This document shows, piece by piece, positions 7,535 through 48,230 of a stretch of 52,397 nt of DNA. The number at the start of each line of letters is the position of its first letter. Positions within the stretch are counted from its first letter, which is position 1. The notes under the pieces are model-generated. The model did not search any database and was not told the DNA's origin. It saw only the letters and a list, made by a program, of their open reading frames with translations. Source of the DNA: a virus (Duplodnaviria > Heunggongvirae > Uroviricota > Caudoviricetes); the IMG/VR virus record IMGVR_UViG_2690316086_000018. One strand, 5' to 3'. Made by a program: the position numbers and the translations under genes.

Positions 7535-7551
7535 GATGATACGTTGTATTA

Positions 7552-8707: not shown

Positions 8708-8854
8708 GTTTTAAACGATATGACGAGACGCTAAAAGAATTGAATCCTATCAATTGGTTAAGCGGTGGTTTTGCCATGTGATATTAGCCGGATCCCGCAA
8801 CAACTCTAGCCCTGACCGGATTAGGTCAAAAATTTAGGCACTTTGATTATCAGG

Positions 8855-10795: not shown

Positions 10796-10848
10796 ATTGA
10801 GAATGTGCTATATAAAAATAACTCTCTTAGCTGATTATGATATATTCT

Positions 10849-10886
10849 ATAGCCTTGTTTTATACTATGCCAAGGCTATATTTATT
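10849..10886. terminator. hairpin between convergent genes
   Basis: atagccttg ... caaggctat inverted repeat followed by A/T-rich run. Confidence 0.35.
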
Positions 10887-10891
10887 AATAA

Positions 10892-11656: not shown

Positions 11657-11772
11657 TTAATAATATGAAATATTATATATCAAAATAGTTGCTAAAGGAA
11701 CTCATGACTTTGTTAATGATAATAACATCACTTTTCCCACAGGGTAATCATGGCATCCTTGTGCTTCCATAG

Positions 11773-12465
11773 TTATTTAAATCTTGAATTTGGCTGTTTT
11801 GATTTTTGTGATTGTTTACTACTATGTTCAAACAACATTAATGGTGTCACTTCTATATTGCTATCGGTAGAATTCTCTCCCTTACGAGGACGACTTGGGA
11901 AACGAACGGTCTTGTCATTATCTGATACGTTTCCACAGAAGTCTGCTTCTGATGATTTTTGGTCATTGTTAAATTTAGCTCGTTTTTCAAACTCTGAACG
12001 TGGAACATTGACACCCAACACTTCATCAAAGATATAGTTTTCTGCGATACGCTTATCATGATCAGCATCAGTGGTATCGGGCTTCCTTCTGGCCCATACG
12101 AATCTCTCTCTTATATATCCTACCACCAGTAGTGTGAAACGCTTAAACAAACTACTCTGACGCGGCTTAATCTGTTTCCTACTACTCATGGGAGCACGGT
12201 TCATCACTTTGGTGTTTTGAAGAGATGGGGTTTTCAATTTAGTGGATGCATTTGGTTCAGGAACAACCAGAACAGGGGATTTCTTCCCTGAAACATTTAC
12301 TTTACTGACCTTATTAGGATCACGGTAAGATTTTGCTGCTGGTCTTCTGCTTGTAGTTGCTGTTGCCACAATCGGCTGCTGTTCTTCTACTGTCGGGAAG
12401 TCAGGGATAACAATCTCTTCGGGTTCAGCAAGATGTGTAATCGTAAAGCTTCTGACATCAACCAC
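11773..12465 (-). CDS. hypothetical basic low-complexity protein (GTG start) just downstream of reconstructed mobA end
   Basis: 230-aa K/P/S/T-rich ORF; starts at GTG. Confidence 0.3.
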   Translation of the reverse strand: MVDVRSFTITHLAEPEEIVIPDFPTVEEQQPIVATATTSRRPAAKSYRDPNKVSKVNVSGKKSPVLVVPEPNASTKLKTPSLQNTKVMNRAPMSSRKQIKPRQSSLFKRFTLLVVGYIRERFVWARRKPDTTDADHDKRIAENYIFDEVLGVNVPRSEFEKRAKFNNDQKSSEADFCGNVSDNDKTVRFPSRPRKGENSTDSNIEVTPLMLFEHSSKQSQKSKQPNSRFK

Positions 12466-12515
12466 GATCTCAAGTGGTAGCTCACTGAATGTGGTGTATA
12501 TAGCGCGGCGATTTT

Positions 12516-12581
12516 TTTGATACCGATTTGCATTTCATTTGATACCGCTGAAAAACGCCGATACGCAACTTATTTGATACT
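12516..12581. repeat. prophage-end repeats, three direct copies of TTTGATAC(C/T) (putative transposase-binding sites, mom end)
   Basis: copies at 12516, 12538, 12573; same motif in inverted orientation at the other prophage end. Confidence 0.5.
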
Positions 12582-12626
12582 AAATCGGCGCTTTTCTTTT
12601 GAGTTTTAGAATGAGTTTTTAAGCGC

Positions 12627-13364
12627 TCATTCACTCTCTTTCAAACCAGTTTTAACTGTTTGTGGTTTTGGGTAAGGCTGGACTTTGAATAGCTTTGTGT
12701 TGAGGCGTTTTCTGGCCCTCTTGTTCAGAAACCGGATGTAACGAAACTGTCGGAACTTATGCACACTGGCTCTGTCGATATTAGCCCTCAGATGTTCACC
12801 TCGTTGTCCGCCTCGTTTAATGGCACTCCTGCAAATCTCGTGATACCACTCGCCATCAAGTTCATAGAATGTTGATTCATGGCTGCCTACATAATCAAAA
12901 TTGCTTGCCTGATACACGACACCAAGACAGCCACAACGCTCATCTGCAAACGACTGAACCCACTGTACCTGCGGATAAAGCTGCCTGATTAGCTTGAGCG
13001 CGTAACTGATTGCCCTTGATTCGGAGTTTCTCGGCATACAGTCATGCATCCATAGCCGGTTAAGCTCCATATATTCTCGGTTCTGCGTACCCGTTACGAC
13101 GCGTGCACCACTGTTTGGGTTAAGGGCGTAACCCCATTGCATTACGCCAACAAGTTCCCGTTCTGAAAATATACCCAGATGAAGGTAGGAATTATTTACG
13201 AAACGGTGGCTGTAATGTTTATTGACGATAACCAGTCTGGCCAGCCAGCAACTTATTGTCTCAACCCGCAACTCACGGGAGCCATAACCAACGATATTGT
13301 CGTTATAGCGAATAAGTTCAGGCGTGCTGATGATACGGGATGTGACTTGCTTTCTGTTCCCCAC
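12627..13364 (-). CDS. mom: Mom-like DNA modification protein
   Basis: 245-aa ORF overlapping the 3' end of a Com-like gene, last gene before prophage end, GATC cluster upstream: the Mu com-mom arrangement. Confidence 0.6.
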
Positions 13365-13518
13365 GACAGGATTTCCTTGTGTATGTGGGGTGCTCTGTGG
13401 CGCTCGGAGATGTGATTTGATTGAGGGTTTTACAGCGCGGACATTTTACTTCCAGATAACTGAAACTGGCCCGTGCCAGTAGCTTATTGCAGTGTCGGCA
13501 CCGTATGTTTCGATACAT
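13318..13518 (-). CDS. com: Com-like zinc-finger translational activator of mom
   Basis: [15 protein letters not shown]...EVKCPRCK...EHPT closely matches remembered Mu Com; start taken at internal ATG. Confidence 0.7.
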
Positions 13519-13565
13519 GGCCGCATAACCTCCTGCTTTGTTGTTGATGCCTTTCTCATGCAATC

Positions 13566-13703
13566 GATCGACAAAAACGATCGATTCGATTTGTTTAATT
13601 GATACAACAAATAGATTTAAAAGTCATCAACAATGATTCAGGGCGGTGATTATTTACTTAAAGAAACGAAGAGTTAGGTGGTGAAAACGATCATAAAATG
13701 ATC
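13566..13703. promoter_or_regulatory. GATC cluster upstream of com-mom (probable Dam-dependent regulatory region)
   Basis: GATC at 13566, 13579, 13689, 13700 embedded in ATCGATCG-type motifs. Confidence 0.5.
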
Positions 13704-13924
13704 ATTTTATTGACTTTTTATACAGTGAAGGTAGGATCGCGCGTATATGTAGTATGTTTCAAATCAACAGGATACTACATAAAAGGGAAACCCAGCATAG
13801 CTGGAACTATGCTGGGTCAATCTGTAAAAACTTGCATCAATGCTTTACTTCGAGCTCGTGGCGTATCCTATGATATTCCCCGGTCTCCTGTAAAGCAGAG
13901 ATGCATAAAAAGGAGATCTTTATC

Positions 13925-14095
13925 ATGGATAAAGAGCCTGTTTGCCCTGCCTGTAAGACTCCCTTACAGCTCATCTATCGCCGTTCTCGATCTCAAAATG
14001 GCAAGACATACAAACCAAAAAATGCTTCCTGTTTCAGGATGCTGATATGTCCTGCCTGTTCTCCCCGGAGGGAAAATACACAAAACGTGCATTAA
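13925..14095 (+). CDS. small zinc-ribbon protein (CPAC...CPAC), possibly Ogr/Delta-like
   Basis: 56-aa ORF with strong aaaaggaga RBS; two CxxC pairs; divergent from com. Confidence 0.3.
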   Translation: MDKEPVCPACKTPLQLIYRRSRSQNGKTYKPKNASCFRMLICPACSPRRENTQNVH

Positions 14096-14651: not shown

Positions 14652-16709
14652 TTATGCCGCAGGGGTATTAACCTCAAGGACAACGCTCTCAAAAGACACG
14701 CCATAAGTTGCCCCTTTGGTGACATCTGTCAGTGTCAGCGTATCTTTGGCAGGGGAAAGTGCATCTTTCACCATCTGGAATGCCTGGCCCGGAGTGCCAT
14801 CCAGCACAGGCGTTACCTGGGCACTTCCCGCCGTAAACTTCAGGACAAGTGTATGCCACTGGTTATTGTAGGCTCCAAATGATCCCAGTTTCGTATTCCC
14901 CCCTGTTTTATGGTGCATCAGATTTAACTGGCCGCCTGTTGTCTGGAGATAATACGCCATCAGGAACGGTGTGCCTGTACCACTCATGGTTACACCTTCC
15001 GGGACCGTATCGGTGTGGAGGTAAATACCCAGAGCAAACTGGCCTTCTTTTACTTCACCTGACAGACGGAATTTACAGGTCAACTGACCACCATGCTTCA
15101 GAAGTTCACCGGCTGCATCAGTTCCATGGGTAAGCGCCCAGGTTTTTCCGCTTTGTTTGGATACGGTCAACGCTTTACCTTCGTCCGTCAGCTGGATTGT
15201 ACCATCTGTAATTTTCCAGCCCTGAGCCGGGGCTTCTCCTGCTGATGCTTTAAGTGAAAGCAGCGTACGGAGTGACGGGGATGTCGGATGGGGGGACTCA
15301 CTGCCTCCTGGCTGACTACCTGTCGGCGCTTCCGGTTTCCCACCCGGCGCGGGCTGAGGCAGGGCTTCACCATCAGGGGCCACACCGGCAATAAATGCAG
15401 AGGTCAGACCTGCATATTTAAGAATTGCTGATGCAAAACGATCTGAGACCAGAAAACGGCGCGCCCAGGAGCTAAAATGGGTTGCCCTGGATGCTGTTGT
15501 CCAGTTGCCATCTCCCCGTGATTCCGCACCATAATACCCGGCAGAAGCGATATCCGGGTCGTGCTCCGGCAGGTTGGTCGCGGTTTTATTACCGAACTCA
15601 TCGTGCATCAGTGGAACAAAGTGAATGTTCTCGGAAGCCCGGTTTTTATATCCGCTATAAATGGTTTCATATGCCGCCGGGTTCTTCTCTTTCCAGTCAT
15701 AGGTTGTGTCACCACATAACCACGGCACACTGTCTGATGAACCACCAATACACTGACCGGAGAAAGCACCAAGATCCGCACGGAATTTTTTCACCATCGC
15801 AGTAAACTGGGCACCATGCTGGGCCGGGGTCGCTTTAAGGTCTCCTTCCCCCTGAATCCATACGACAGATAACAGCACATTCTTTGGATTCGCCTCAAGT
15901 GCCGCTTTAGTTCGACTGACAAGATCCTGATACAGTGGGGTATCCACTCCCCAGCGTAGTGACGCCTCGGCTGCACCACTTGCCGGATCGAATGAGCCAA
16001 CTGCGCCGGTTGTAAAAGCAGAGCCGCCACGGGCACAGGGAACCAGTAAAATCCCGGCATCAGCAGGAATCACCGGTAATACTTTTTTCGCAATATGAAG
16101 TCCCTGCCCCACACAACCATACTGCCCTTTTTTCAGGTCTGCTTTTGGATGGTTCAGCAGACTCATATTCTGAACATCATGAAGGCAGTGATCTGCTGGA
16201 ATGATTTCATTGTATTTGCAGGGAATACCTCCGGGGGTTTGTGTATTCCTGCGTGCCAGCTGCATAATACGTGGATCAGGACGATCATAAGAATCCGGAA
16301 GGGGCAACCCTTCACCATAAGATGAAGCATTGGACTGGCCGGCTATAACAATCACGTAATACCAGGAAGGGGAGCTGGAAGCCGTTTCATTTCCTGCCGG
16401 ACGGGTATGTGTTTCTGCATTATCCCAGTCTGACGGTTCAGTAGTACCGGCAACATCAGCACTTAACGGAATGACAGCACCAATACCCGCTCCGGTAATT
16501 TCCACGTTCGGATCACCGGATACTGGCCTTACCCACAGGCAATCCTGTGTATTAAAACTGATGAGACAGTCAGCAAATGTCATTCCTCCTTTCGTTTCAG
16601 CAGGAGGAAAGGGAGCCTCAAGAAATGCCGCTGTACCACCGGAAACTTTAACGGTAAAGTTTCCGGGCATTGATGATAGTTGAACCCATTTGGACGTCAT
16701 AATATTCAT
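14652..16709 (-). CDS. SGNH/SASA-type carbohydrate esterase-domain protein with C-terminal beta-sandwich-like domain (prophage cargo gene)
   Basis: 685-aa ORF with VIVIAGQSNASSYGEG (GQSN serine motif of sialate-O-acetylesterase-like SGNH hydrolases); lies between gin and com-mom. Confidence 0.6.
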   Translation of the reverse strand: MNIMTSKWVQLSSMPGNFTVKVSGGTAAFLEAPFPPAETKGGMTFADCLISFNTQDCLWVRPVSGDPNVEITGAGIGAVIPLSADVAGTTEPSDWDNAETHTRPAGNETASSSPSWYYVIVIAGQSNASSYGEGLPLPDSYDRPDPRIMQLARRNTQTPGGIPCKYNEIIPADHCLHDVQNMSLLNHPKADLKKGQYGCVGQGLHIAKKVLPVIPADAGILLVPCARGGSAFTTGAVGSFDPASGAAEASLRWGVDTPLYQDLVSRTKAALEANPKNVLLSVVWIQGEGDLKATPAQHGAQFTAMVKKFRADLGAFSGQCIGGSSDSVPWLCGDTTYDWKEKNPAAYETIYSGYKNRASENIHFVPLMHDEFGNKTATNLPEHDPDIASAGYYGAESRGDGNWTTASRATHFSSWARRFLVSDRFASAILKYAGLTSAFIAGVAPDGEALPQPAPGGKPEAPTGSQPGGSESPHPTSPSLRTLLSLKASAGEAPAQGWKITDGTIQLTDEGKALTVSKQSGKTWALTHGTDAAGELLKHGGQLTCKFRLSGEVKEGQFALGIYLHTDTVPEGVTMSGTGTPFLMAYYLQTTGGQLNLMHHKTGGNTKLGSFGAYNNQWHTLVLKFTAGSAQVTPVLDGTPGQAFQMVKDALSPAKDTLTLTDVTKGATYGVSFESVVLEVNTPAA

Positions 16710-36381: not shown

Positions 36382-38036
36382 CCCCGATCAAATTCATGAT
36401 ATGCCTCATCGTCATCACGATAACCGCCCTCCATGGCCCGCGACCGCTCCGGCAGCGCCTGGCAGGCTGATTCATCCAGGATAAAGCCCTCCATGTATGA
36501 CGCCCGGTTTGCCATACAGAGCGCCACGGCAAAATCACCATGGCGGCGGGCGTTCACAGCCGTTGCGTTCTGGTCCTTCGTACGCCCCTTGTCGATTTGC
36601 GGGATACCGTTCACCACCTTCACATGGCGCAAATCATCAAGCGTGGTCTGATGGCGGGCGACGAGGATATTCTGATCCTCAAACTCGGCCTTCAGTTTTG
36701 GCATCCACTCGCCGTACCACTTCGGCGATAACATCACGCAGTCGATGATGTCCGGGCCAAAGGCCAGCAGCGCGGCTTCGGCCAGATAGCCGCCGTTACC
36801 GGTGGCGTCGAACGCCGCACCGACCAGCGCCGGAACGCGGGTCAGGATGTACATCATCACCTGCTCCTGCTGGGCATACGGCAGGTTGCGCAGCTCCACG
36901 CGAAACACCTCGCGTTTTGCCAGGGATTCAGTGATTTCCAGCAGCACAAAACAGGACAGGTCTCCGGTGCGGGCAAAGTCTTCCCCGAAGCTGAATCGGG
37001 AACGGGGATTTAACGCCTCTAAAAGCGGTTTTAAATGTTCTTCACACCAGGTTAAAACCTCCGATTCACGCAGCCATGCGGCACGGCTGATGAAGTCGTC
37101 CGGGGCTTCAAACGTCAGAATCGGGATGTCGCGGATCATCGCCATTTCAATAAGCGCGTGAGGAATATAGGCACCGCCGGATTTTTTCGGGATACAGCCG
37201 TATTCCTCGTCGGCATCCTCACGGGTCGGGGCGTTTTTGTAGAGATCATCACGCCACTTCTGCTCGCTTTCCGGTGACCATTCGCGGCCGGTGACATAAC
37301 AGATACGACGGTACAGCCCGTCCGCAATGGCATCATCCAGGGTAATGCGGTGGACGCTGTAATCCTTGCGCCCTTCGCGGGCTTCCTGAATGTACTGATT
37401 AAACAGATTATCGACGCCGTTATGCGTGGAGATAATACGCACGCGCGCGCCCCACATGGTAAGCGCCATTGCCGCCTTGAGAAGCTCATCCAGTGACTCG
37501 TGGAACGCGGCTTCATCAATCACCACATCCCCCTGAAGGCCGCGCAGGTTTGACGGACGGGAAGACAGTGCCTGAATTTTGAATCCACTGTTCGGAAAGC
37601 GGATCATGTAGGTCAGAATTTCTTCTTTTTTATCCCGATCCCAGAAGGTCTGCTCATACACATCAGCATCTGCCAGCTGGTTAAAGGCACGGGAGAACAG
37701 TGCACAGGCAGAAATATATTCCAGCGCCATCTCCTGCTTTGACCCCACATAAAACACATTGCGGCCACCGCGCCGCTTCGGTTTTGCAGCGGTAATGACG
37801 TTACGCCCGGCTTCCGCCCAGGTAAGCCCGGTGCGGCGGGATTTTTCCGCGATGCAGACCTCGCTTTCATCCTCAAACCAGCGGGCCTGATAATCCAGAA
37901 ATACCGGCATATCACCGGGCAAATCAAGGCTGTCCGGCACATCCACGCCCAGCAGGGCTTTTTCACCGGCCAGATCAATTTTGCGGGTGGAGACGGTATT
38001 CGTCAGTAAGGGGGAGAGTTCTTCGGCGTTATTCAT
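36372..38036 (-). CDS. terminase large subunit (Mu gp28-like)
   Basis: 554 aa; size and position. Confidence 0.85.
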   Translation of the reverse strand: MNNAEELSPLLTNTVSTRKIDLAGEKALLGVDVPDSLDLPGDMPVFLDYQARWFEDESEVCIAEKSRRTGLTWAEAGRNVITAAKPKRRGGRNVFYVGSKQEMALEYISACALFSRAFNQLADADVYEQTFWDRDKKEEILTYMIRFPNSGFKIQALSSRPSNLRGLQGDVVIDEAAFHESLDELLKAAMALTMWGARVRIISTHNGVDNLFNQYIQEAREGRKDYSVHRITLDDAIADGLYRRICYVTGREWSPESEQKWRDDLYKNAPTREDADEEYGCIPKKSGGAYIPHALIEMAMIRDIPILTFEAPDDFISRAAWLRESEVLTWCEEHLKPLLEALNPRSRFSFGEDFARTGDLSCFVLLEITESLAKREVFRVELRNLPYAQQEQVMMYILTRVPALVGAAFDATGNGGYLAEAALLAFGPDIIDCVMLSPKWYGEWMPKLKAEFEDQNILVARHQTTLDDLRHVKVVNGIPQIDKGRTKDQNATAVNARRHGDFAVALCMANRASYMEGFILDESACQALPERSRAMEGGYRDDDEAYHEFDRGCW

Positions 38037-38617
38037 CAGACTTTACCCAACAGAATCCCCTTAATACGGGACTCAAGCTGTTCACTCATCCCGTCCACGC
38101 CGCGCAGCTCGTCGGTGACGGCGTTTGCCATCTCTTCAGCAAATGCAGCCCTGATTTCTTTTTCACGCTTAATGCTGCGCTCGGCGGCACTTTCCGCACG
38201 CTGTGCTGACAGGAGGATGTCCTTAATAAGACGCATATCCACGTCGCTGTCACTGTTCAGGGATTCGGTCGCGGCACGCAGACGGCGGTACATCAGGGCG
38301 CGGGACATCTCCAGGATCAATGCAGTGGTTTCACCGGTTGGCTTGTCCCCCAGTTCGGCCATCATGGCTTTTGTCTGCTCGCGTAAATCACGCAGGTTAC
38401 GGGCAATCAGCTCATTACGGGAGGCTTCCCGGCTGATGGCCGCCGGTGAAAGCTGCTGCTCTTCCGGCAGGCCCGCCTCACGGATCAGACGGTTGATTTC
38501 CTCGCGTATCTGGACCTGCGTCAGACGTTTTTCACGCAGCATTTCCAGCAGTGGCTTACGGATGCTGTCGGGGAGCAAATCCACCTTGCGCACGCGTCCA
38601 CGCGTCGGCTTGTCCAT
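38036..38617 (-). CDS. terminase small subunit-like protein (Mu gp27-like)
   Basis: 193 aa immediately upstream of large terminase. Confidence 0.55.
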   Translation of the reverse strand: MDKPTRGRVRKVDLLPDSIRKPLLEMLREKRLTQVQIREEINRLIREAGLPEEQQLSPAAISREASRNELIARNLRDLREQTKAMMAELGDKPTGETTALILEMSRALMYRRLRAATESLNSDSDVDMRLIKDILLSAQRAESAAERSIKREKEIRAAFAEEMANAVTDELRGVDGMSEQLESRIKGILLGKV

Positions 38618-38619
38618 CG

Positions 38620-38910
38620 TTACCCCCTTGCGCGTGGTTTCTTCACACCCGGAACGCTGGCGCGGCCTTCCGCCACATCCTGCCCCCGGCCGGTCAGTTC
38701 CGCGATGAAATAACCGTTAATCAGAACGCGTTTGCGCACCAGTCCCTGCTCGGCAAGCCAGGCAATGTGGGTGTGAACGGTGTCGCGGGACACGCGGTGG
38801 CCGTAATCATCCAGACAGTCCTGGAGCACGGATTCACCCAGTTCACCGTTGTAATCTGCCAGCGACCGCAGAATGACCAGACGCTGATCTTCAGTAATGA
38901 AATCACTCAT
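38620..38910 (-). CDS. Mu gp26-like protein
   Basis: 96 aa; position. Confidence 0.4.
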   Translation of the reverse strand: MSDFITEDQRLVILRSLADYNGELGESVLQDCLDDYGHRVSRDTVHTHIAWLAEQGLVRKRVLINGYFIAELTGRGQDVAEGRASVPGVKKPRARG

Positions 38911-39214
38911 TCGTTTTTTTCCTTACCGCCTGCTCCAGCAGCAGTTCGTTCTGATAGGAGACAGAGCGGAGCGTGGCGTTCGTGGTTTTCAGTTCACCCC
39001 GCAGGGTCACGATTTCCACATTCAGACGGTTGACCTCAGCTTCTGTCGGCAGTGACGACAGGCGGGTTTCCACCTTCTCAACGCGGTCGGAGAGTTTTTC
39101 AAAGGCCTCGCGGGGGACAAACGTTTTGCGCATCAGCGCCATGAATATCCCGCCAGCGGTTGCCGTCGCCGAAAGGATCGGCACAACATAATCTTTAACG
39201 ATGCTGACCCACAT
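38903..39214 (-). CDS. Mu gp25-like small membrane protein (possible releasin of the lysis cassette)
   Basis: 103 aa, N-terminal TM segment then coiled coil. Confidence 0.4.
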   Translation of the reverse strand: MWVSIVKDYVVPILSATATAGGIFMALMRKTFVPREAFEKLSDRVEKVETRLSSLPTEAEVNRLNVEIVTLRGELKTTNATLRSVSYQNELLLEQAVRKKTNE

Positions 39215-39422
39215 GACGGGCCTCCATGATGTTCTGGCAGTTCACACAACGGATGGCATCCGGCACAGCAACAAGACGTGCGGCGGGGATCTCTCCGCCA
39301 CAGTCCGCGCAGACACGTCTGCCCGGAGCATCCATTGCCCGGCGCTTACGTGTCAGCCGGTTACAAAGGGCGCGTTCTGATCCCCGCTCCATCACAGCCT
39401 GAGCACGATCTGAATCATCCAT
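39195..39422 (-). CDS. TraR/DksA-family C4 zinc-finger protein
   Basis: CADCGGEIPAARL...CVNCQ motif; start at ATG 39422 with aaggaaaaagg RBS. Confidence 0.6.
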   Translation of the reverse strand: MDDSDRAQAVMERGSERALCNRLTRKRRAMDAPGRRVCADCGGEIPAARLVAVPDAIRCVNCQNIMEARHVGQHR

Positions 39423-39432
39423 ACCTTTTTCC

Positions 39433-39804
39433 TTACTTCGTCTTTCCTGCCGGAACAGCAGGCGTTCCGGCCATATCAGTAAATTCATGTTGTCGCCGCG
39501 CCTCCAGACGACGAATACTGGCCTTGTCCACGTTGCAGTTCTTGATCACCGCCAGCAGTTGCAGGTTGTAAGTGACCGATGCCCCAAACGTGAACGGCTC
39601 CGGCACAGGAGGGACCAGGCAGTCAGCCAGCCATTCAGCGGGGATCGGCACCGGCTTCACAGGCACGTATTTCACAGACGGCCCGGCGCACCCGATCAGC
39701 CACATCATCAGGAACAGGGGCAGAGGCCGCAGGCACCGCTGCCAGCGACCGGCGGACAACGCTCTGCTGTCCCTCGCTGTGCTGAATGTTCTGTTGTTTT
39801 TCAT
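39433..39804 (-). CDS. o-spanin-like outer-membrane lipoprotein (start uncertain)
   Basis: lipobox LIGC followed by proline-rich segment; overlaps end of i-spanin frame. Confidence 0.45.
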   Translation of the reverse strand: MKNNRTFSTARDSRALSAGRWQRCLRPLPLFLMMWLIGCAGPSVKYVPVKPVPIPAEWLADCLVPPVPEPFTFGASVTYNLQLLAVIKNCNVDKASIRRLEARRQHEFTDMAGTPAVPAGKTK

Positions 39805-40135
39805 TCGTGGCCGCCTCACTGATTTGTGAAATGAGTTGCAGGGTGTGCTGCTGATTTGCCAGCACCTGACGCGCCTCATCCCGCTCACGCACAAGCACCT
39901 GATTATTGTCTTCAAGGCGCTGCGTCTTCTGGTGCATTCCCCATATCGCGGCAACCAGTACAGCGATAATCCCCAGCGCCGCCATGCACGCCCCGGCAAT
40001 CAGGGCCGGTAAGGCATTATTCACCGCAGCCACAGGACACCCCGTAACAGCAGTACCGCACACAGCAGCGCTATCATGAGCGGTCGCCAGAAGCGGTTCA
40101 GACGTTCGGCAAGTCGTAGCGACATAACCATTCAT
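39635..40135 (-). CDS. i-spanin-like protein (start uncertain)
   Basis: TM helix LPALIAGACMAALGIIAVLVAAIWG followed by coiled coil; directly after endolysin. Confidence 0.45.
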   Translation of the reverse strand: MNGYVATTCRTSEPLLATAHDSAAVCGTAVTGCPVAAVNNALPALIAGACMAALGIIAVLVAAIWGMHQKTQRLEDNNQVLVRERDEARQVLANQQHTLQLISQISEAATNEKQQNIQHSEGQQSVVRRSLAAVPAASAPVPDDVADRVRRAVCEIRACEAGADPR

Positions 40136-40598
40136 CCGCCGAACGGCGGGCCTCAAGGCCGGGGAGTTTCACCCCCTTTGAATAAATCCAGCGGATATAC
40201 TGCTTACAGGACGCGGGCATCTGCCCGGCATTGATCAGGCGCAGAAGCGTGGAGTTGCGGAAGTTCGTTTCACCGGCCCAGAAGATCCACGAAGCCAGCG
40301 CCACAGTCTGACCACGGGTAAGCGGCACCTGAACACGCCGATCAATGGCCGCAAAGGCCCATTTCATGTCCTTTTCCAGTAGTTCCAGGCATTCTTCATC
40401 CGTCAGGGTCATACCCGGTTTCACATCCGGGCCGGTATGGCCGTAACAGATGGTGGGTGTACCGGTGGGATCGATATACGTGGAGTTTTCTTTCCCTTCC
40501 CAGTAACCGGTGTAATGCGTGGCAATCGTGAACGTCCCGGCACCGGCCAGAACAAGGGCAATCAGCTTTTTACGCAGTGGTGCGGGGAGTTTTGGCAT
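40098..40598 (-). CDS. SAR-type endolysin (T4-lysozyme-like)
   Basis: N-terminal hydrophobic SAR-like segment LIALVLAGAGTFTIA then E-x8-D-x5-T catalytic pattern (EGKENSTYIDPTGTPTICYGHT). Confidence 0.8.
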   Translation of the reverse strand: MPKLPAPLRKKLIALVLAGAGTFTIATHYTGYWEGKENSTYIDPTGTPTICYGHTGPDVKPGMTLTDEECLELLEKDMKWAFAAIDRRVQVPLTRGQTVALASWIFWAGETNFRNSTLLRLINAGQMPASCKQYIRWIYSKGVKLPGLEARRSADEWLCRYDLPNV

Positions 40599-40669
40599 TG
40601 TTACGCTGTCTCATGATGTTCTCTGAGTCAGCGTAACGGTGAAGGAAAGGCGGCAGGCTTTGCGGAATA

Positions 40670-41095
40670 TCAGAAAAGTGGCGGTTGCGTTCTTGCCAGA
40701 TGCAGACGGCGCTGTTCACGTATGACGGTATAAATCTGGGTTTCTGACATCCGGTAATGGCGGCGAAGGGATTCAATTTTCTCGCCCCGGTCCCAGCGCG
40801 AAAATATCTCATTGTTTCGCAGCTCGGCAAAGAGAGATTCCCCGACCGGCAGGTAATAACCCCGTCCGCCCATATAGGCTGCCTGAGCCGCAGCCACCTT
40901 GCGTGCCAGTTTACCGGCCAGTACCGGCTCAATCCCCTGACGCTGAAGTTCTGCGCCGGTGACTTCAACCAGTTCTGACAGGGTCCGCGGCCAGTTCTTT
41001 TTGAGAACATCATCAGGGATGTCATCAAGGCGGTCGATAAGGGCGTGCAGTTGCTCACTGTCACCACCAAACATGCTCATCTGAGTTTCTGCCAT
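40670..41095 (-). CDS. mor: Mor/C-family transcriptional activator
   Basis: 141 aa with C-terminal HTH (MSETQIYTVIREQRR); between gemA-like and lysis genes. Confidence 0.65.
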   Translation of the reverse strand: MAETQMSMFGGDSEQLHALIDRLDDIPDDVLKKNWPRTLSELVEVTGAELQRQGIEPVLAGKLARKVAAAQAAYMGGRGYYLPVGESLFAELRNNEIFSRWDRGEKIESLRRHYRMSETQIYTVIREQRRLHLARTQPPLF

Positions 41096-41164
41096 ATCAG
41101 CCTCCGGTTCTCGCGTTCCCGGTAAGTTTAAAATAAAAATCCCGCGTTGTGGCGGGATTTGGAG

Positions 41165-41674
41165 TTAACGGGGAAGTGATTTTTCATACTGCCTGCAAAC
41201 GGCGTCATACCCCATCAGCGTGCGTTCGGGCATTCCCATCGCGGCCAGCATTTTGCGGCGGTGCCATCGCTTGAGACGCTCCAGCACATCTGAGGCCAGG
41301 GCGGGGTGTTGCTCCAGCCACTGCCAGTTTGCCACACCTTCGCCGCCGTTCTGCGCGGCCGTCTGCGATTTCACCCAGCGGTTAAGGGCGGTTTCCGCAC
41401 CATCGGTGATAAAGCCCTGCCGGTGCATCACCTTCCAGATGGCGCGAATTTTGGCGGTCACCGTACCCGGTTTTAAGGCCCGGTTAACCGGGTTCTGACG
41501 CACTTTAAAACCGCGTTTTTTGAAAACATCCAGCACGCGGGATAACTCATCCGGTGACATATCCCGGCAGCTGGTTTTGCCGGTGGCTGCCAGCAGCGCG
41601 GATGTATAAGTCTCATCATCCAGGGCAAGCTCGCGCTTTGCCACATGAATGGCGGATATCAGTTTTCCTCTCAT
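41165..41674 (-). CDS. gemA: GemA-like protein (Mu gp16 family)
   Basis: N-terminus LISAIHVAKRELALDDETY typical of the gp16/GemA family. Confidence 0.65.
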   Translation of the reverse strand: MRGKLISAIHVAKRELALDDETYTSALLAATGKTSCRDMSPDELSRVLDVFKKRGFKVRQNPVNRALKPGTVTAKIRAIWKVMHRQGFITDGAETALNRWVKSQTAAQNGGEGVANWQWLEQHPALASDVLERLKRWHRRKMLAAMGMPERTLMGYDAVCRQYEKSLPR

Positions 41675-41967
41675 ACCGTATTTACCTTTTTACGGACATG
41701 GAAAGCCTTTTCTGCCTCATCCCACCGGGCATGGTGTGTTGGTGGAATAATCATTATGTGCCAGCCATCTCTGGTTGTTATCCGGCAGAAAAATTCACCG
41801 CTATATAACACAATGGCCTGCTGAATGAGCGCATCAGCCGCCCGTTCAACCGGATGTCTTTTATCAAAAAAGCAGATGATTTTTCGACATAACCACCGGG
41901 TAATAACAAATGCGCCGAAAAAGGATGTGATATATAAGCACCAGAACAACAGAGAACTATTGTCCAT
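41671..41967 (-). CDS. hypothetical membrane protein (early region)
   Basis: 98 aa, hydrophobic N-terminus. Confidence 0.4.
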   Translation of the reverse strand: MDNSSLLFWCLYITSFFGAFVITRWLCRKIICFFDKRHPVERAADALIQQAIVLYSGEFFCRITTRDGWHIMIIPPTHHARWDEAEKAFHVRKKVNTV

Positions 41968-42154
41968 TATCTTTCTCCTTATTCACTCTTCTGCGGCATT
42001 CGGCACAGTCATCAGGGCTTTCAAATGTATCCGGCTCGCGATTATGAGCCAGATATAACCACCGTCCACATATACTGATATTTTCGCCTGTTTTAAAAAA
42101 ATGATGCTTCCTGGCCATTAGTGGCCGCGCCCATCCAGCGGGTAGACTATTCAT
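41957..42154 (-). CDS. hypothetical small Cys-containing protein
   Basis: 65-aa ORF in early operon. Confidence 0.35.
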   Translation of the reverse strand: MNSLPAGWARPLMARKHHFFKTGENISICGRWLYLAHNREPDTFESPDDCAECRRRVNKEKDNGQ

Positions 42155-42482
42155 TTGCTTTATCCTCCATGCTGGACAGAATCATATGTATTAATGTCGG
42201 GCGTGGAGATATACGCATTTCATTAAGCGTCTGAAGGGCAGCAACAGCTGCCTGTTTATCGGTGCCTTTGGCAATTTCAGCAAGAGAATGCACAATCCAT
42301 AACGGGCTTAACGCTACGGCTGAATGCAGAATCATGTCATCCATAATAATTTCTGGCATATCCCGTTTGTCACATTCTTTATCCATAAAAGAAACGATTT
42401 TTTCTGCATCTTCCGGTTTCATGCCTCCGGCGATGAGAATTTTACGATATTCATAAGACGATCTTAATTCAATACTCATCAT
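42147..42482 (-). CDS. hypothetical early-region protein
   Basis: 111 aa, translationally coupled run. Confidence 0.4.
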   Translation of the reverse strand: MMSIELRSSYEYRKILIAGGMKPEDAEKIVSFMDKECDKRDMPEIIMDDMILHSAVALSPLWIVHSLAEIAKGTDKQAAVAALQTLNEMRISPRPTLIHMILSSMEDKANE

Positions 42483-42494
42483 TCACCTGCCTGT

Positions 42495-42887
42495 TTAATC
42501 AGTTTCCAGTGCTTTGCTACGGGCAACAGCCTCACACTCAAAAAATACCGACTCCGGCACACGCTCCTTTAATTCACGAACAAGAAAATCATTAACGAGT
42601 TCATGACGTCTTATATTTCTTTCCTTTTCCTCCTGGCGCAATACAGCAAGGCGGTATTCAACAGTCCGGCGTTGTTTCTGAAAGACAGCCAGTGCTTTTC
42701 TGGCAGAGTTACGCCATGTATCATCGCCACAGGGTTCGTATTCAAGCTGAAATTTAATCTCTTCAATGGTTTCTTTTATTTTTGCCAGCAAGCTAAGACA
42801 GTCGCTGATTGTCTTCAGTTTTTCATTATCAATATAACTTCTCACGCACTCACCTCCCGTCATTCCGGTAAAGCTGAAATATGGCAC
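42495..42887 (-). CDS. hypothetical early-region protein
   Basis: 130 aa. Confidence 0.4.
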   Translation of the reverse strand: MPYFSFTGMTGGECVRSYIDNEKLKTISDCLSLLAKIKETIEEIKFQLEYEPCGDDTWRNSARKALAVFQKQRRTVEYRLAVLRQEEKERNIRRHELVNDFLVRELKERVPESVFFECEAVARSKALETD

Positions 42888-43171
42888 CAGTGCGTCACCT
42901 GTCCGTCCTCATCTTCAAGGCAGGCTCCGGTTTCTTCATCAATAAAAAAGCCTTCATACCCCATATGGCCGATGCGCAGTTCCTGTTGGTCACCATACTG
43001 AACAATCAGCACGACAGCCTCCATATCAGGCGGAAATGCGTCATCCAGTGAATGCCAGGGATAACCGCGCAAATCCCCGAAATAAACACCGGTCAGCGTT
43101 CCGCCACAAACCGACATTCCGGCGGCACATACCAGAGGCTCGTCTGATTCAACAAATAATGTCGTTATCAT
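42860..43171 (-). CDS. hypothetical early-region protein
   Basis: 103 aa. Confidence 0.4.
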   Translation of the reverse strand: MITTLFVESDEPLVCAAGMSVCGGTLTGVYFGDLRGYPWHSLDDAFPPDMEAVVLIVQYGDQQELRIGHMGYEGFFIDEETGACLEDEDGQVTHWCHISALPE

Positions 43172-43719
43172 GGCATTAACTCCCGTAATACAACATCTTC
43201 GGCAGTCCGGCGATGGTGATAAATAAAATTCACCGTACTCTCGGATAATTCAAATTTCTCGCCTATTTCCCGGAAGGTAAGACGTCGTGGTGATTCAGCA
43301 TCCCGTAATTCACGAATAAGATGAACATCATCATCAGGTATACGGGTGAAGGGCAGCAACTCTCCGTATTTTTTCATGCTTACGCCAATATATCGCGCCC
43401 GTTTGTGGACAGAATCCCGGTCTCGCCCCAGATATTCTCCTATTTGCTTACCGGTCATCGTTCTGGCATTTTTTCGGATAAATTTATCTTCATCATGTTT
43501 AAATCTTGGACGTTTGCATTTGAGCAACTCCGGGTAAGTACCGCGTAATAAAACAATCCGGTTATGTACACCCCAGAAACTTCTTTTTACCCTGACAGCA
43601 ATATCCTTAACCGGGGTGGATGGATAAAGCGCAATCAGCAGTGCATCTTCTTCAGGTGTCCACGCACGGACATGAGCGGGTGCACGGCCTTTTCGCCCCA
43701 TGGGTTGTAAAATCATCAT
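43168..43719 (-). CDS. hypothetical early-region protein (possible DNA-binding)
   Basis: 183 aa, basic. Confidence 0.4.
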   Translation of the reverse strand: MMILQPMGRKGRAPAHVRAWTPEEDALLIALYPSTPVKDIAVRVKRSFWGVHNRIVLLRGTYPELLKCKRPRFKHDEDKFIRKNARTMTGKQIGEYLGRDRDSVHKRARYIGVSMKKYGELLPFTRIPDDDVHLIRELRDAESPRRLTFREIGEKFELSESTVNFIYHHRRTAEDVVLRELMP

Positions 43720-43722
43720 ACA

Positions 43723-44238
43723 TCACCCCCTGACTCGCTTTTCAGCAGCATAAAACTCATCAGACAGAATTTCGGTCATTTTCTGTTTTGCGGGTTTTAC
43801 GCCGCACTGAAGGTAAATCACATCGTCAACGCAGAACCACTCCACAGGGCCAAACAGGATTGCCGAGAAATCAATACCCAGCCAGAACAACAGGGCATCG
43901 GTTCTGGCATACGTGACGGGCGAATATTCACGCCACAGACTGTTAAGTTCGTCAGAGGCAGCGCACAGGGCTTTGGGAATACACGATGTGCGCGGCGTGC
44001 AGCTCCAGCCATTCGACGCAGTCGGTTTTCGCCATAAGTCGCGATGAAAAGGATATTTGTTATCCGTAAAACGCAGTCCTTTAAAATAAAAACCATTGAT
44101 ACCGGATACAAATACCGACCGACAATCAACATTCAGCACGGCCTCAAGACGTTTTGCCTCATCCTTAACTTTCTTGTAGTCCTGCTGGTATTTTTGCCAC
44201 GCAGCCAGCGCGGAAGGGTTTGATGTTTTAAAGAACAT
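43723..44238 (-). CDS. hypothetical early-region protein
   Basis: 171 aa. Confidence 0.4.
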   Translation of the reverse strand: MFFKTSNPSALAAWQKYQQDYKKVKDEAKRLEAVLNVDCRSVFVSGINGFYFKGLRFTDNKYPFHRDLWRKPTASNGWSCTPRTSCIPKALCAASDELNSLWREYSPVTYARTDALLFWLGIDFSAILFGPVEWFCVDDVIYLQCGVKPAKQKMTEILSDEFYAAEKRVRG

Positions 44239-44771
44239 TACGCCACCTCCGCAGATATCCCGGCAGGCGCAGCCGTCCGGTCAACAATCAGGTAACGCAG
44301 AACATGTTCGGTGATATTCCAGCCGCTTAAACCGCAGATAATGACACCCAGGCGAATGTCGATATACGCCATCACAAACTGGGGCACGCCTTCTTTCATG
44401 GCCTGCTCATCAACTTCAGCCACCACATAAACGGTTTCGCAGGTCAGTACGCCCTGAGCAAATTCCCACGCCATCGACGGAATATCATGCCCCTCAATCC
44501 ACGGCAGGGACTTTCTGAAGCTGCACCACTGAACATCATCAGCCGCACCTTCCTGGCTGCATTTGCGACGAACCGGCTGCACCGGGCGGGGACGCGGAAT
44601 ATCATAAAAACCGTTACATTCCGTCAGCACCCCGGCATCGACCGCATCACGCAGAAAATAAACCATCGAGGATGGCGGCATATTCATTTTTTCAGCCAGA
44701 ATGCCGCAGGTCAGACGCCCGTAAATACTCAGCCAGTTTTTAACCCCTTCAAGCACTTTTGCATCAATCAT
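44238..44771 (-). CDS. hypothetical early-region protein
   Basis: 177 aa. Confidence 0.4.
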   Translation of the reverse strand: MIDAKVLEGVKNWLSIYGRLTCGILAEKMNMPPSSMVYFLRDAVDAGVLTECNGFYDIPRPRPVQPVRRKCSQEGAADDVQWCSFRKSLPWIEGHDIPSMAWEFAQGVLTCETVYVVAEVDEQAMKEGVPQFVMAYIDIRLGVIICGLSGWNITEHVLRYLIVDRTAAPAGISAEVA

Positions 44772-44774
44772 GAA

Positions 44775-45317
44775 TTATTCCTCCGTCAGCGCCACATATT
44801 CAGAATGTTTAATTTCCTGGCATTCTTCAGGAATACACCCTTTTATTTCCCTGCCATAAGCGCCTACTTTAAACACCACGCACAGGGCATCACGGGAGAG
44901 CGACGGGGTCCACCAGGAGTCCGTGTTAAACATGGAGGGGATTCTCATTACCCCCAGCTTTTCACAGAGCCAGACAAGGAAATCAGGACGCTTTCTTAAC
45001 TCGCGTTCAGCGGCTTCAATCATTGCGGCAATCGCCGGTCCTTCAGGGCATGACTCATCAGGTCTGGCAATAAAGCACGGTCCGTCCCCGATAAAAGCCA
45101 CATCATCGCGCTTACGCCAGCCCGCAGGCAGAGCACCAGAAAAATAAAACTCACTGATTACGTCCATGGCAAACGGCTTTAAGCGCAATCCGGCAGCGCC
45201 TGTATTTTTCAGTAATGCCCGAAGAATACTGTTGCGTAGCGGTAAAACAGTCTGTTGATATTTGGTGAAATATTTATTTGTCTGCACACGGTCTAATTTG
45301 AAATAAAAATATGCCAT
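44775..45317 (-). CDS. hypothetical early-region protein
   Basis: 180 aa. Confidence 0.4.
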   Translation of the reverse strand: MAYFYFKLDRVQTNKYFTKYQQTVLPLRNSILRALLKNTGAAGLRLKPFAMDVISEFYFSGALPAGWRKRDDVAFIGDGPCFIARPDESCPEGPAIAAMIEAAERELRKRPDFLVWLCEKLGVMRIPSMFNTDSWWTPSLSRDALCVVFKVGAYGREIKGCIPEECQEIKHSEYVALTEE

Positions 45318-45414
45318 ATATCCTGTTCCTTATTTTCAGTTTACAGGCGCAGGCAGTCCCCTGACGCGAGCGCCATAATTAAAACGAAGTGATATTTAAT
45401 TGATTAATGCGGTG

Positions 45415-45945
45415 TTATTTATTCAGTCCGGCGTCCTGTTCAAAAGGCTCGACATAAAAACTTTCAGCGCCTTTATTCACCTTAATACCGGCAATCCCTT
45501 TCACCGCATCCGGCTCCGCCAGGACCGCTTCCTTGTTCACTTCCTCTTTCGTGCGGATAAAACGCTCAAGGCCCATACGGCGCAGCATTTCAATCACACC
45601 TTCCACATCACGACTGACGCTGCATGATGGATTCCCCAGTCGCCATGACACCGTTCCGGTGGTCAGATTGGCAGTTTTGGTTTTGCCGCCGTTCGTCAGC
45701 TCATCACGGTTGGTTTTGCACCAGTCCTGAATCCCCTTAAAAAGCACTTTGATTTCTTTTTTAAGGTTTTCAATCTGCGGCGTATAACGGGCGGTGATTT
45801 CTGCCACTTCATCATTCATCGCTGTTTCCAGGCGCAGCGCCTCTCGCTGAATATCGCCCAGGGTGCGGATATCGCGGCTGACCTCTTCACGGGTCTGCGG
45901 TGCCGCCTCTGCTGCGGCCTTTAATTTTGTAACGCGTTTTGCCAT
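45415..45945 (-). CDS. gam: Gam-like host-nuclease inhibitor (DNA-end binding)
   Basis: near-collinear match to Mu Gam: RLETAMNDEVAEIT...NRDELTNGGKTKTANLTTGTVSWR...ERFIRTKEEVNKEA. Confidence 0.85.
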   Translation of the reverse strand: MAKRVTKLKAAAEAAPQTREEVSRDIRTLGDIQREALRLETAMNDEVAEITARYTPQIENLKKEIKVLFKGIQDWCKTNRDELTNGGKTKTANLTTGTVSWRLGNPSCSVSRDVEGVIEMLRRMGLERFIRTKEEVNKEAVLAEPDAVKGIAGIKVNKGAESFYVEPFEQDAGLNK

Positions 45946-45956
45946 TTTGTTTTTCC

Positions 45957-46277
45957 TTATTGCAGTGTGCCTGATGCTTTATGCACGCGGTGGCGTTTAA
46001 TGATGGCATCCGCCCCAAAAGCCTGTACAGATGCCTGAAATTCCGCTGAGAGAAACTGAATAATTTCAGGGCTGTGATACTGGAGAATACTTGCATAAAC
46101 GTCACAGAGTGACGTCGGCCTGTTATTCGTATCACGTTCTGTTTTTACATCCACACCAATCTTTTCATGCACTTCAACACAGTCATTGCCTGCCGGTTTT
46201 TCGTCATGCGAAACATGCTTAAATTCAAAAATAACGCGTACTTTGCTCATGGAATTACCCCTGCTGATTAAATTCAT
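45957..46277 (-). CDS. hypothetical protein, paralogue of 46255-46527
   Basis: N-terminus MSKVRVIFEFKHV resembles MSKVVRIIFEYKEHV of neighbour. Confidence 0.4.
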   Translation of the reverse strand: MNLISRGNSMSKVRVIFEFKHVSHDEKPAGNDCVEVHEKIGVDVKTERDTNNRPTSLCDVYASILQYHSPEIIQFLSAEFQASVQAFGADAIIKRHRVHKASGTLQ

Positions 46278-46527
46278 TACCTTTAATAACCCCGGAACGC
46301 ATGCTCATATCTTTCATGAGCGCACTGGCTTTCATTGCCACAAGTTCAGCAAAGTCTCTGCTTTCCGCGAGCATAACCACCCCAAAAATCATGGCGGGTC
46401 CATCACCTTTCTGCTTTATCCCGGTTGAACGTATGTCCAGACTTACCCCCATGCGCACTGTTCCATCAGCGTTTTTATGGATAACGTGCTCCTTGTATTC
46501 GAAAATAATGCGTACGACTTTACTCAT
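46255..46527 (-). CDS. hypothetical protein, paralogue of 45957-46277
   Basis: 90 aa; shared N-terminal motif. Confidence 0.4.
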   Translation of the reverse strand: MSKVVRIIFEYKEHVIHKNADGTVRMGVSLDIRSTGIKQKGDGPAMIFGVVMLAESRDFAELVAMKASALMKDMSMRSGVIKGNEFNQQG

Positions 46528-46805
46528 CCTCTGGTCCTCGTTCTGTTTGGATAACTGACCCGGCGTCTGACCTCACGGCAGAACCGAATCATGGCATTAA
46601 AGGCTTCTTCCTCCGTCACCGCTTCCGGTATCCCCGGAACCAGTAACTGCTCCTGTTCATCACGTCCATGACGCGCCATAACCTCAATCACATGCCGTAC
46701 CGTGGCAGGCTTTCCGGCAACTATCGGCAATGCACCTTCCGGCAGGACGTAACCAAACTCAATAAGACCACTCGACCACGCCCATGCAATGAGATTTTTT
46801 TTCAC
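46524..46805 (-). CDS. hypothetical early-region protein
   Basis: 93 aa. Confidence 0.4.
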   Translation of the reverse strand: MKKNLIAWAWSSGLIEFGYVLPEGALPIVAGKPATVRHVIEVMARHGRDEQEQLLVPGIPEAVTEEEAFNAMIRFCREVRRRVSYPNRTRTRG

Positions 46806-46806
46806 C

Positions 46807-47073
46807 TCACACCTCCCAGTAAACCGTGCAGCCGCTGATGCGGGTGGCCTTCACACGGCGGCGCAGGCCGTTGGTCTGTATGGTGATTTCAATTTCACCG
46901 GTTCCCTGCACGTTGCCTACCGGCGGCGTGGTTTTCAGTGCAAAACGTTGCGGATAGCGCTTACTGCGTTCCAGTACCGCACCGGCAAGTTCGGTCAGAC
47001 GGCGCGCGCTGTTCAGGGAGTCGAATAAATTCATTTTGTTACCGCAGGATTGCATATTCATATAACACCTCAT
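46807..47073 (-). CDS. hypothetical early-region protein
   Basis: 88 aa. Confidence 0.35.
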   Translation of the reverse strand: MRCYMNMQSCGNKMNLFDSLNSARRLTELAGAVLERSKRYPQRFALKTTPPVGNVQGTGEIEITIQTNGLRRRVKATRISGCTVYWEV

Positions 47074-47301
47074 TTAGCTGACTTGTTTCGCACCAACAGA
47101 ACGGCATATTCCGCTGTAAACGTCTGTCGCACCTTCTCGATCAAGTCCGGCAGATATCACCATTCGTGTGCGGTCATTAAATTCAAAAAGTAAATCGCCA
47201 CATTCTTTATTTTCGGCCAGTGAAATCACCTTCACGTTATCGAAATTAACCAGGTAAAAGCGTCCGTAAATATCAGGAATATTAAATACCGCCATAATCA
47301 C
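47074..47301 (-). CDS. hypothetical early-region protein (kil-position)
   Basis: 75 aa immediately downstream of B. Confidence 0.35.
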   Translation of the reverse strand: MIMAVFNIPDIYGRFYLVNFDNVKVISLAENKECGDLLFEFNDRTRMVISAGLDREGATDVYSGICRSVGAKQVS

Positions 47302-48230
47302 ACCTGTGAGAGTAATTCAGGGTTGGTATAAACCTCTTTAAAGGCCGCATTAATATGTTTTTCTGTCAGCGCCGCGCCTTCACCGCTGGCGGTGAGCCAC
47401 GCCTGGTTAAGCGTATGTGTCAGAACGCGTAACGCTCCCGGCTTTTCAGCGATAGCCTGCATGACGGCCAGCTCGGCCTCACCACTGATCCCCCACGCCC
47501 TGGCAATGGCCAGCACATCCGCCTTTTTGGCCTTGCGAAGTTGTTTTGTACGGGCAAGACGGCTGAACAGGCGCGATAAATCATCAAAGGTGCGGCGTCC
47601 ACCTTTAAACAATCCGCGCGGGTTACCAATAAGCACCATCCCGATCCCCGTGGCGTCCTGAATTGCCCGGAGTTGCTCCAGACCGTCAATACCAAGATGA
47701 TCCGCCTCATCCACAATAACCAGTCCACGCGTTCCCATCAGGCGACGGCGGATGGCGCGGGATAATGCCCCTTTGTTCGCGCGGGTGTAATCAATCCCCA
47801 GCGCATCGGCCAGCTCCAGCAGACACTCCGTGACGCTGGAGTGCGCGGGTGACAGGGTGATCATCCAGGTGTTTGGTTGCTCCTGGCAGTAATTACGGGC
47901 AGTGGCCGTTTTACCCACACCCGGTACGCCCACAATAACGTTAATACAGCCCATCAGACGAACCGCCTGAAACAGTGCGCGCAGCTCCTGGACTGTCTGC
48001 GTTTCCACAAACTGCGGCGGTTCCGGCAGTGCGCTTTGTTTATTCCAGTTCTCATACCAGGAACGCAGGGAAGCAGCCACAGCAGCGTTATCGCCTTTAT
48101 ATTTTCCCTTACGGAAAGCCGATAATGTGCCGTCGGAAATTCCCGCCTCTCTGGCGATGGCATACTGCGTCAGTACGCCGCCATCAATAAGTTCATCAAT
48201 GGTCTTGATTACATCGTTAATATCAGTCAT
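47298..48230 (-). CDS. B: MuB-like AAA+ ATPase (transposition target-DNA activator)
   Basis: near-collinear similarity to Mu B: GDNAAVAASLRSWYENW...LPEPPQFVETQTVQEL...GVPGVGKT...GLVIVDEADHLG...KPGALRVL. Confidence 0.9.
   Translation of the reverse strand: MTDINDVIKTIDELIDGGVLTQYAIAREAGISDGTLSAFRKGKYKGDNAAVAASLRSWYENWNKQSALPEPPQFVETQTVQELRALFQAVRLMGCINVIVGVPGVGKTATARNYCQEQPNTWMITLSPAHSSVTECLLELADALGIDYTRANKGALSRAIRRRLMGTRGLVIVDEADHLGIDGLEQLRAIQDATGIGMVLIGNPRGLFKGGRRTFDDLSRLFSRLARTKQLRKAKKADVLAIARAWGISGEAELAVMQAIAEKPGALRVLTHTLNQAWLTASGEGAALTEKHINAAFKEVYTNPELLSQV

Follow-up and report, generated by a model that had tools for sequence, protein, structure and literature searches.

Gene-by-gene comparison with Mu of the early region between B and gemA in a widespread Sp18-type Mu-like prophage

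What are the numerous small genes that separate the transposition gene B from gemA in IMG/VR record IMGVR_UViG_2690316086_000018, and what roles could they have in the element that carries them? This stretch of 52,397 nucleotides, assigned to the Caudoviricetes, is hereafter called the window, and the block under study covers about 5.6 kb of it. The most probable answer to the first question, to which we give a probability of about 85%, is that the block belongs to an Sp18-type Mu-like prophage, of whose early operon it forms the distal, 'semi-essential' (SE) part. Both the list of open reading frames (ORFs) and the annotation that RefSeq gives for an identical copy place 15 co-oriented genes on the minus strand between B (47298..48230) and gemA (41165-41674); they are numbered here w01 to w15 from B to gemA, and w06 is gam. 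B encodes a MuB-type AAA+ transposition protein (Pfam Phage-MuB_C, E 2.5e-25; 49% identity to MuB), the product of gemA matches Pfam GemA (E 3.2e-30) and that of the following gene, mor (40670-41095), matches Pfam Mor. The genes for transposase A (48302-50392) and ner (50394-50642) are found on the other side of B; all these genes are carried by the minus strand, and a repressor-side ORF (50758-51363) by the plus strand. The left, early arm of this Mu-like prophage takes up positions 38000-52397 of the window and is read on the minus strand, with a lysozyme gene beyond mor. An earlier note on this DNA had placed the block in the semi-essential early region of a transposable phage; the Pfam matches of the flanking genes, the presence of gam inside the block and the location of all genes on one strand bear this out.

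The block is found over its full length, at 96-100% identity, in 213 complete genomes, and it is 96.4% identical in LC727881. The Sp18-type Mu-like prophages of enterohaemorrhagic Escherichia coli (EHEC) and the Mu-like inserts in the Shiga toxin (Stx) phages LC727881 and LC727895 are the same element as the one analyzed here: the Sp18-type copies differ from the window by alleles or cassettes only, and the insertion site in the window is different. Comparison with another insertion locates the left end of the prophage at position 51613, where it interrupts a MobA/MobL gene; the left-end sequence of Mu itself, searched in the window, is absent. The block is ordinary, being the early region of a known and widespread Mu-like prophage that is common in pathogenic E. 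coli. The result is a gene-by-gene map of the early region of a widespread EHEC prophage onto Mu, the practical value of which is modest.

The SE region of Mu (AF083977, Mu_5 to Mu_54) has the same place and orientation between B and gemA/mor as the block and the same tight layout. Mu and the window have in common gam, gp11, gp12, the helix-turn-helix (HTH) repeats of gp9 type, a Kil-like gene beside B, a member of the gp7 family and a spacer located after gam. However, the region includes 15 genes over 5.6 kb in the window and 11 genes over 3.9 kb in Mu. Five Mu genes (gp6, gp8, gp13, gp14 and Mu_54) have no counterpart in the window, whereas eight to nine genes of the window (w01, w03, w07, w11-w15 and one extra copy of the gp7 family) have none in Mu. 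The transposable phages of Pseudomonas (DMS3, D3112 and JBD phages) display the same order, i.e. B, small ORFs, gam, small ORFs and gemA; they share with the window a homologue of w03 beside gam, but their other small ORFs are unrelated in sequence. In the gene-order maps that we drew for 23 genomic and 80 IMG/VR loci, no homologue of the gp7 family, gp11 or gp12 was detected in non-enterobacterial loci.

For each of the 15 ORFs, the allele of the window was compared with the distinct alleles found in about 60 related loci. The ratio of nonsynonymous to synonymous substitution rates (dN/dS) lies between 0.07 and 0.34 throughout, which indicates that the ORFs are genuine genes rather than products of chance. 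The most constrained genes are B (0.09) and gam (0.07), and the least constrained are w04, w05 and w07 (0.32-0.34). Three start codons were corrected from the Prokaryotic Genome Annotation Pipeline (PGAP) annotation and from the start of the PHROG matches: w01 begins at 47295 instead of 47301, w05 at 46250 (MSKVRV...) instead of 46277 and w12 at 42845. All gene junctions range from -11 to +15 nucleotides, the sole exception being a gap of 97 nucleotides after gam. A terminator scan of the coding strand found no strong terminator-like site within the block, weak matches only. It also revealed a GC-rich hairpin of 9 bp followed by a T-run (41137-41160, minus strand), located directly after the gemA stop codon and before mor. 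This differs from the Mu record, where gemA and mor overlap and the terminator is predicted beyond mor. Together, the junctions and the pattern of terminators have the layout expected for one long early operon, and a single early transcript may be proposed from the arrangement of the genes and by analogy with Mu.

Mapping of the block onto the re-annotated Mu genome was done using BLASTP, all-against-all hhalign and PHROGs. Five to six of the 14 genes other than gam have Mu counterparts. The gam gene (45415..45945) encodes the DNA-end-binding inhibitor of host nucleases (PF07352, E 1.5e-41; 57% identity to Mu Gam). The protein encoded by w08 (44238..44771) is a homologue of Mu gp11 (68% identity over 177 amino acids; Pfam PF25754 Gp11_C, E 5.7e-41), and the one encoded by w09 (43723..44238) is a homologue of Mu gp12 (54% identity, both proteins belonging to phrog_2314). 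Furthermore, w10 (43168..43719) encodes a basic protein of 183 amino acids (isoelectric point (pI) 10.0) with HTH-type repeats, which belongs to phrog_323 'transcriptional regulator' (E 6e-58) and is a relative of Mu gp9 (hhalign probability of 97% over the C-terminal two-thirds of w10); it contains three such repeats versus two in gp9, several Pfam HTH models match it, all below their thresholds, and two alleles that are about 70% identical are known. A PDB sequence search revealed no relative of w08, w09 or w10 below E 0.1. A kinship between w07 and w09 (gp12), which was first a visual impression, obtained no support from hhalign.

In Mu, the SE region comprises about 14 ORFs that are transcribed with A and B and specifies functions that are lethal to the host (PMC3325207); these functions are largely uncharacterised (PMC3820752). 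In the prophage of the window, transcription would likewise start at an early promoter beside ner and run along the minus strand across A, B and the block as far as gemA. As deduced from work on Mu, the products would be made early after induction or infection, alongside the transposition proteins, and the genes would be dispensable for growth in the laboratory. The products would act on the host, through protection of DNA ends (Gam), division block or killing (Kil-like protein) and binding to DNA. Some points weigh against this picture. Transcription from one promoter is deduced from the gene arrangement and from Mu, and the functions given to the genes of the block derive from homology. Moreover, the Kil label of w02 (46807..47061), which encodes a basic protein of 84 amino acids, may be questioned. 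This protein belongs to phrog_2679 'Kil protein' (E 7.8e-46) and cross-matches phrog_2743 (E 1e-3), and Mu Kil belongs to phrog_2743 (E 1.3e-42) and cross-matches phrog_2679 (E 9e-5). BLASTP aligns w02 with the C-terminal 39 amino acids of Mu Kil at 33% identity (E 1.5e-4), and the hhalign probability is just 19%. The label comes from these cross-matches and this short alignment, and w02 is here termed Kil-like.

The other genes include eight that have no Mu counterpart. Next to B, w01 (47074..47295) encodes an acidic protein of 73 amino acids that belongs to phrog_3375, a family of unknown function (E 8.9e-47), and has a dN/dS of 0.19; it has no Pfam, NCBIfam or PADLOC match. In some Mu-type loci, its relatives (34-40% identity) stand in for gp5-gp7. 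The protein encoded by w03 (46524..46805; 93 amino acids; phrog_1518, E 3.8e-43) travels with gam. Its homologues, which are 43-50% identical, adjoin gam in Pseudomonas phages DMS3, D3112 and JBD phages and in Burkholderia phage BcepMigl. The protein has no Pfam match and no PDB sequence match below E 0.1. The name 'host nuclease inhibitor', under which several sources list it, traces to Pseudomonas phage records (the DMS3 homologue is DMS3-12, 5495-5776). The w03 family has no similarity to Gam, and this name appears to have been borrowed, in these records, from the adjacent gam; the correction of this propagated name means that w03 is not a demonstrated nuclease inhibitor.

The w07 gene (44775..45317; 180 amino acids) is a cassette that encodes a divergent DUF5420 protein. 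With a profile built from w07 and its alleles, many PF17457-bearing proteins from Salmonella and E. coli are recovered, end to end, at E 1e-66 to 1e-35, and a C-terminal motif, IKHSEF.A.TEE, is conserved and common to the w07 family and DUF5420 (PF17457). The w07 protein itself has no Pfam match at E <= 0.1 and hence falls below the PF17457 model, so that the link with DUF5420 is established through the family profile only; identity between w07 and the DUF5420 branch is about 24-32%. Search of PDB with the w07 profile gave nothing below E 0.1, and a literature search on DUF5420 found nothing relevant.

The end of the block that is close to gemA carries w11 to w15. The w11 gene (42860..43171; phrog_6925) encodes an acidic protein of 103 amino acids (pI 4.1) and is replaced by an ORF of 61 amino acids in other loci. 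It is followed by w12 (42495..42845; 116 amino acids; phrog_6158; dN/dS 0.13), which is carried by some loci only, and by w13 (42147..42479; 110 amino acids; phrog_1988). In phages closely related to Mu, gp13 and gp14 flank the relatives of w13 (32-36% identity); a PDB sequence search with w13 gave no match below E 0.1. The last two genes encode a protein of 65 amino acids with three cysteines including a CxxC pair (w14, 41957..42154; phrog_2358) and a protein of 98 amino acids with a hydrophobic N-terminal segment (w15, 41671..41967; phrog_17269). The mean Kyte-Doolittle hydropathy of w15 is 1.82 over the 19 residues 5-23, and w15 is probably a membrane protein.

The RefSeq annotation of the identical copy lists Gam and 14 'hypothetical proteins'. 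In a collection of 15 billion proteins, the names of ten block proteins are 'hypothetical', except for w03 ('host nuclease inhibitor'), w10 ('AsnC family protein') and w08 ('Gp11 C-terminal domain-containing protein'). The earlier note considered that no gene but gam has a recognisable function. This holds for most of the proteins, which are uncharacterised, and has to be qualified for w02 (Kil-like), w08 (gp11), w09 (gp12), w10 (related to gp9) and w07 (DUF5420). Conversely, the block does not consist of Mu housekeeping early proteins, since only five or six of the 14 genes have Mu counterparts and, among these, only Kil has an assigned function.

Could the remaining genes form an island devoted mainly to counter-defence? 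According to this explanation, the small proteins, especially w01, w03-w05, w07 and w11-w15, would inhibit host anti-phage systems and be swapped as cassettes. The gene-order maps are in keeping with such exchanges. Among near-identical Sp18-type prophages, w03 is present or absent, and w07 has three states among Sp18-type loci: 93-99% identical, replaced by an allele that is 23-24% identical, or absent. Two alleles of w05 that are about 60% identical are also found. The gemA-proximal end alternates between w11-w12-w13, a 61-amino-acid ORF followed by w13-w14-w15, and w11 followed by homologues of Mu gp13 and gp14. Among relatives, B and gemA lie about 1 kb to 5.6 kb apart, the window being at the top of this range. 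These data fit a block made of an accessory set of exchangeable cassettes, as judged from sequence comparison. The presence, absence or allele replacement of w03, w05, w07, w10 and w11-w15 among near-identical prophages, the small size of the proteins and their lack of known domains all speak for counter-defence, and Gam is itself a nuclease inhibitor. However, mosaic cassettes are typical of temperate-phage early regions in general, and therefore the mosaic pattern alone does not show counter-defence. Similarly, the dN/dS of w04, w05 and w07 is the highest, compared with 0.07-0.09 for B and gam, but remains far below 1. Furthermore, the conservation of w03, gp11 and gp12 across genera or between Mu types points to a core role in the phage.

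Direct searches did not provide any candidate. The PHROG matches of all 15 proteins are 'unknown', Kil, Gam or transcription regulator families, none of which is annotated as anti-defence, and no NCBIfam match was found for the ORFs of the block. PADLOC, which was run on ten of the 14 proteins (w01-w05 and w07-w11, w12-w15 not being scanned), gave a single weak match of w10 with a homing endonuclease (E 0.0017, 16 bits). The AlphaFold models of two block proteins did not match any informative solved structure and gave no anti-defence fold, and a literature search for anti-defence roles of the Mu early region found nothing relevant. Counter-defence as the main role of the block is hence rather unlikely. 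The idea of a counter-defence reservoir, which had been put forward in the earlier note, retains indirect arguments, i.e. the cassette mosaicism and the somewhat raised dN/dS, set against the lack of any PADLOC match above noise and of any NCBIfam or PHROG anti-defence match. Should any of these variable cassettes turn out to serve in counter-defence or host takeover, their testing would be eased by Mu genetics; nothing found here shows that they are.

The adjacent genes w04 (46255..46527; 90 amino acids; phrog_4107; dN/dS 0.32) and w05 (45957..46250; 97 amino acids; phrog_2230) raise another question, that of their common origin. We consider that they are probably homologous and would constitute ancient paralogues, arranged in tandem and not recently duplicated, within a small family of Enterobacteriaceae that includes Mu gp7; they are referred to as gp7-like paralogues A (w04) and B (w05). 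Mu-type phages have a single slot at this place, filled by gp7 or by a protein of 89 amino acids beginning with MAKVIFEF, and the start motif common to w04 and w05 opens every member of the gp7 family. Between w04 and w05, hhalign gave probabilities of 71-84%, up to 83.5% at E 8e-6. When w04 was compared with a profile of all other members of the family, the probability was 80% (E 1.4e-5) over 74 colinear columns. The proteins that fill the gp7 slot link the two ends of the family: w05 matches the 89-amino-acid proteins at 96-97%, and these match Mu gp7 at 71-92%. In addition, a subgroup recovered by the global search bridges the family, with hhalign probabilities of 97% to gp7, 97% to w05 and 75% to w04. 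The best BLASTP links between proteins of w04 type and of w05 type have 23-30% identity over 86-91 columns. The direct comparison of w05 with Mu gp7 is weak (hhalign 2-8%), so that the membership of w05 in the family is transitive, via the 89-amino-acid proteins and the bridging group. PHROGs splits the gp7-like family into three (10252, 2230 and 4107).

Several results argue against including w04 in this family. It obtains no hhalign score when compared directly with Mu gp7, and the hhalign probability between w04 and w05 varies from 21 to 84% depending on how the alignment is built, some set-ups giving 21-46%. A profile built without w04 has 34 matches among 1.84 billion representatives of the global library, none of which is of w04 type. 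If w04 and w05 were not homologous, their N-terminal likeness would result from convergence or from a constraint on translation initiation, and the rest from chance similarity between small beta-beta-alpha-alpha proteins. Besides the low-scoring set-ups and the failure of the w04-free profile, this explanation would account for the restriction of the BLASTP match to the first 17 aligned positions (70% identity, E 0.02) and for the placement of the two proteins in separate PHROGs. However, several independent alignments are colinear and nearly full-length (69-91 columns, E 7e-6 to 2.5e-5), the two genes are adjacent and of similar length, and the members of the gp7 family all begin with the same motif. 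Moreover, within the DNA that encodes this motif, 6 of the 13 aligned codons differ between w04 and w05, 4 of them at synonymous positions only. Since most differing codons are synonymous, the shared peptide was kept by selection and does not reflect a recent copy. The absence of homology is thus unlikely.

A recent local tandem duplication in this prophage lineage, suggested by the adjacency of the genes and their common start motif, is highly improbable given an overall identity of about 20%, the synonymous divergence of the motif and the separate occurrence of the two lineages (w05-type proteins occupy the gp7 slot alone in Mu-type phages, and the L045 locus has w05 without w04). Of the proposal that w04 and w05 are tandem paralogues arisen by local duplication, the shared motif and the probable homology over most of their length are therefore upheld, and the recent origin is not. 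With ancient paralogy as the preferred explanation, three separate PHROGs (10252, 2230 and probably 4107) can be joined into one gp7-like family. This family is small: in a word-indexed search, the source names of its members were restricted to E. coli, Salmonella, Yersinia and Cronobacter. The AlphaFold2 model of w05 (predicted local distance difference test (pLDDT) score of 84) displays a long beta-hairpin followed by two helices and has no informative structural neighbour in PDB; the gp7-family profile compared with PDB sequences gave nothing below E 0.1. The two proteins would most likely be small binders of a host or phage partner. In a Pantoea locus, three tandem small ORFs that look gp7-like obtained no score in the profile comparison.

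The only sizeable gap of the operon is the non-coding spacer of 97 nucleotides located after gam (45318..45414, minus strand), the equivalent of which in Mu (L001) is found at 6326-6423. In it, a GC-rich palindrome, GGCGC..GCGTCAGGGGA..GCGCC, comes after an AT-rich stretch, and each contig has one copy. Whichever gene comes next, this spacer is conserved downstream of gam, both in Mu and in all loci of Mu type or Sp18 type, as well as in Kluyvera prophages. Its identity between Mu and the window is 71%, compared with 64% overall and 47% at third codon positions for gam, which indicates that the spacer is under constraint. As a structured RNA, it has no Rfam match, no covariation (the outer stem being invariant) and a fold z-score of -0.35. 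Scans called neither an intrinsic terminator nor a sigma-70 promoter in it, and it lacks a T-run. It might bind a protein, direct RNA processing or act as a recombination linker between modules. No feature is annotated at this position in the Mu record. Neither the spacer nor the gp7-family link is recorded in the libraries and annotations searched, and both are minor findings.

A broader scenario, which we regard as doubtful, would unite these two findings. The gp7-like proteins would be fast-diversifying inhibitors of a variable host target, involved in counter-defence or superinfection exclusion, and their tandem copies would widen the specificity. The spacer would be a cis-acting element (protein-binding or RNA-processing site) and, in all Mu-like phages of enterobacteria, would mark the edge of an accessory module open to exchange.

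Other parts of the window carry genes that do not belong to the early region. The right arm of the prophage is marked by a gene whose product belongs to the Mom family (12627-13364, Pfam E 8.5e-77). A minus-strand gene (14652-16709) encodes a protein of 685 amino acids in which SASA carbohydrate-esterase and DUF6645 domains are recognised; this protein, encoded at the end of the late region, probably serves as a tail fibre or modifies a receptor. Over its left 12-14 kb (1-14000), the window has a GC content of 32-44%, compared with 55-60% for the prophage; this part encodes mostly unassigned proteins and looks like a different mobile element. This low-GC part includes a replication-protein-O-like/winged helix-turn-helix (wHTH) region (2843-3550) and a gene encoding a protein with an HHH_3 motif (6279-7460). 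Beyond Mom, the AT-rich DNA (about 32% GC) also encodes an abortive-infection protein of the AbiGi family (10892-11656, E 4e-25), beside an unassigned ORF of 230 amino acids (11773-12465).

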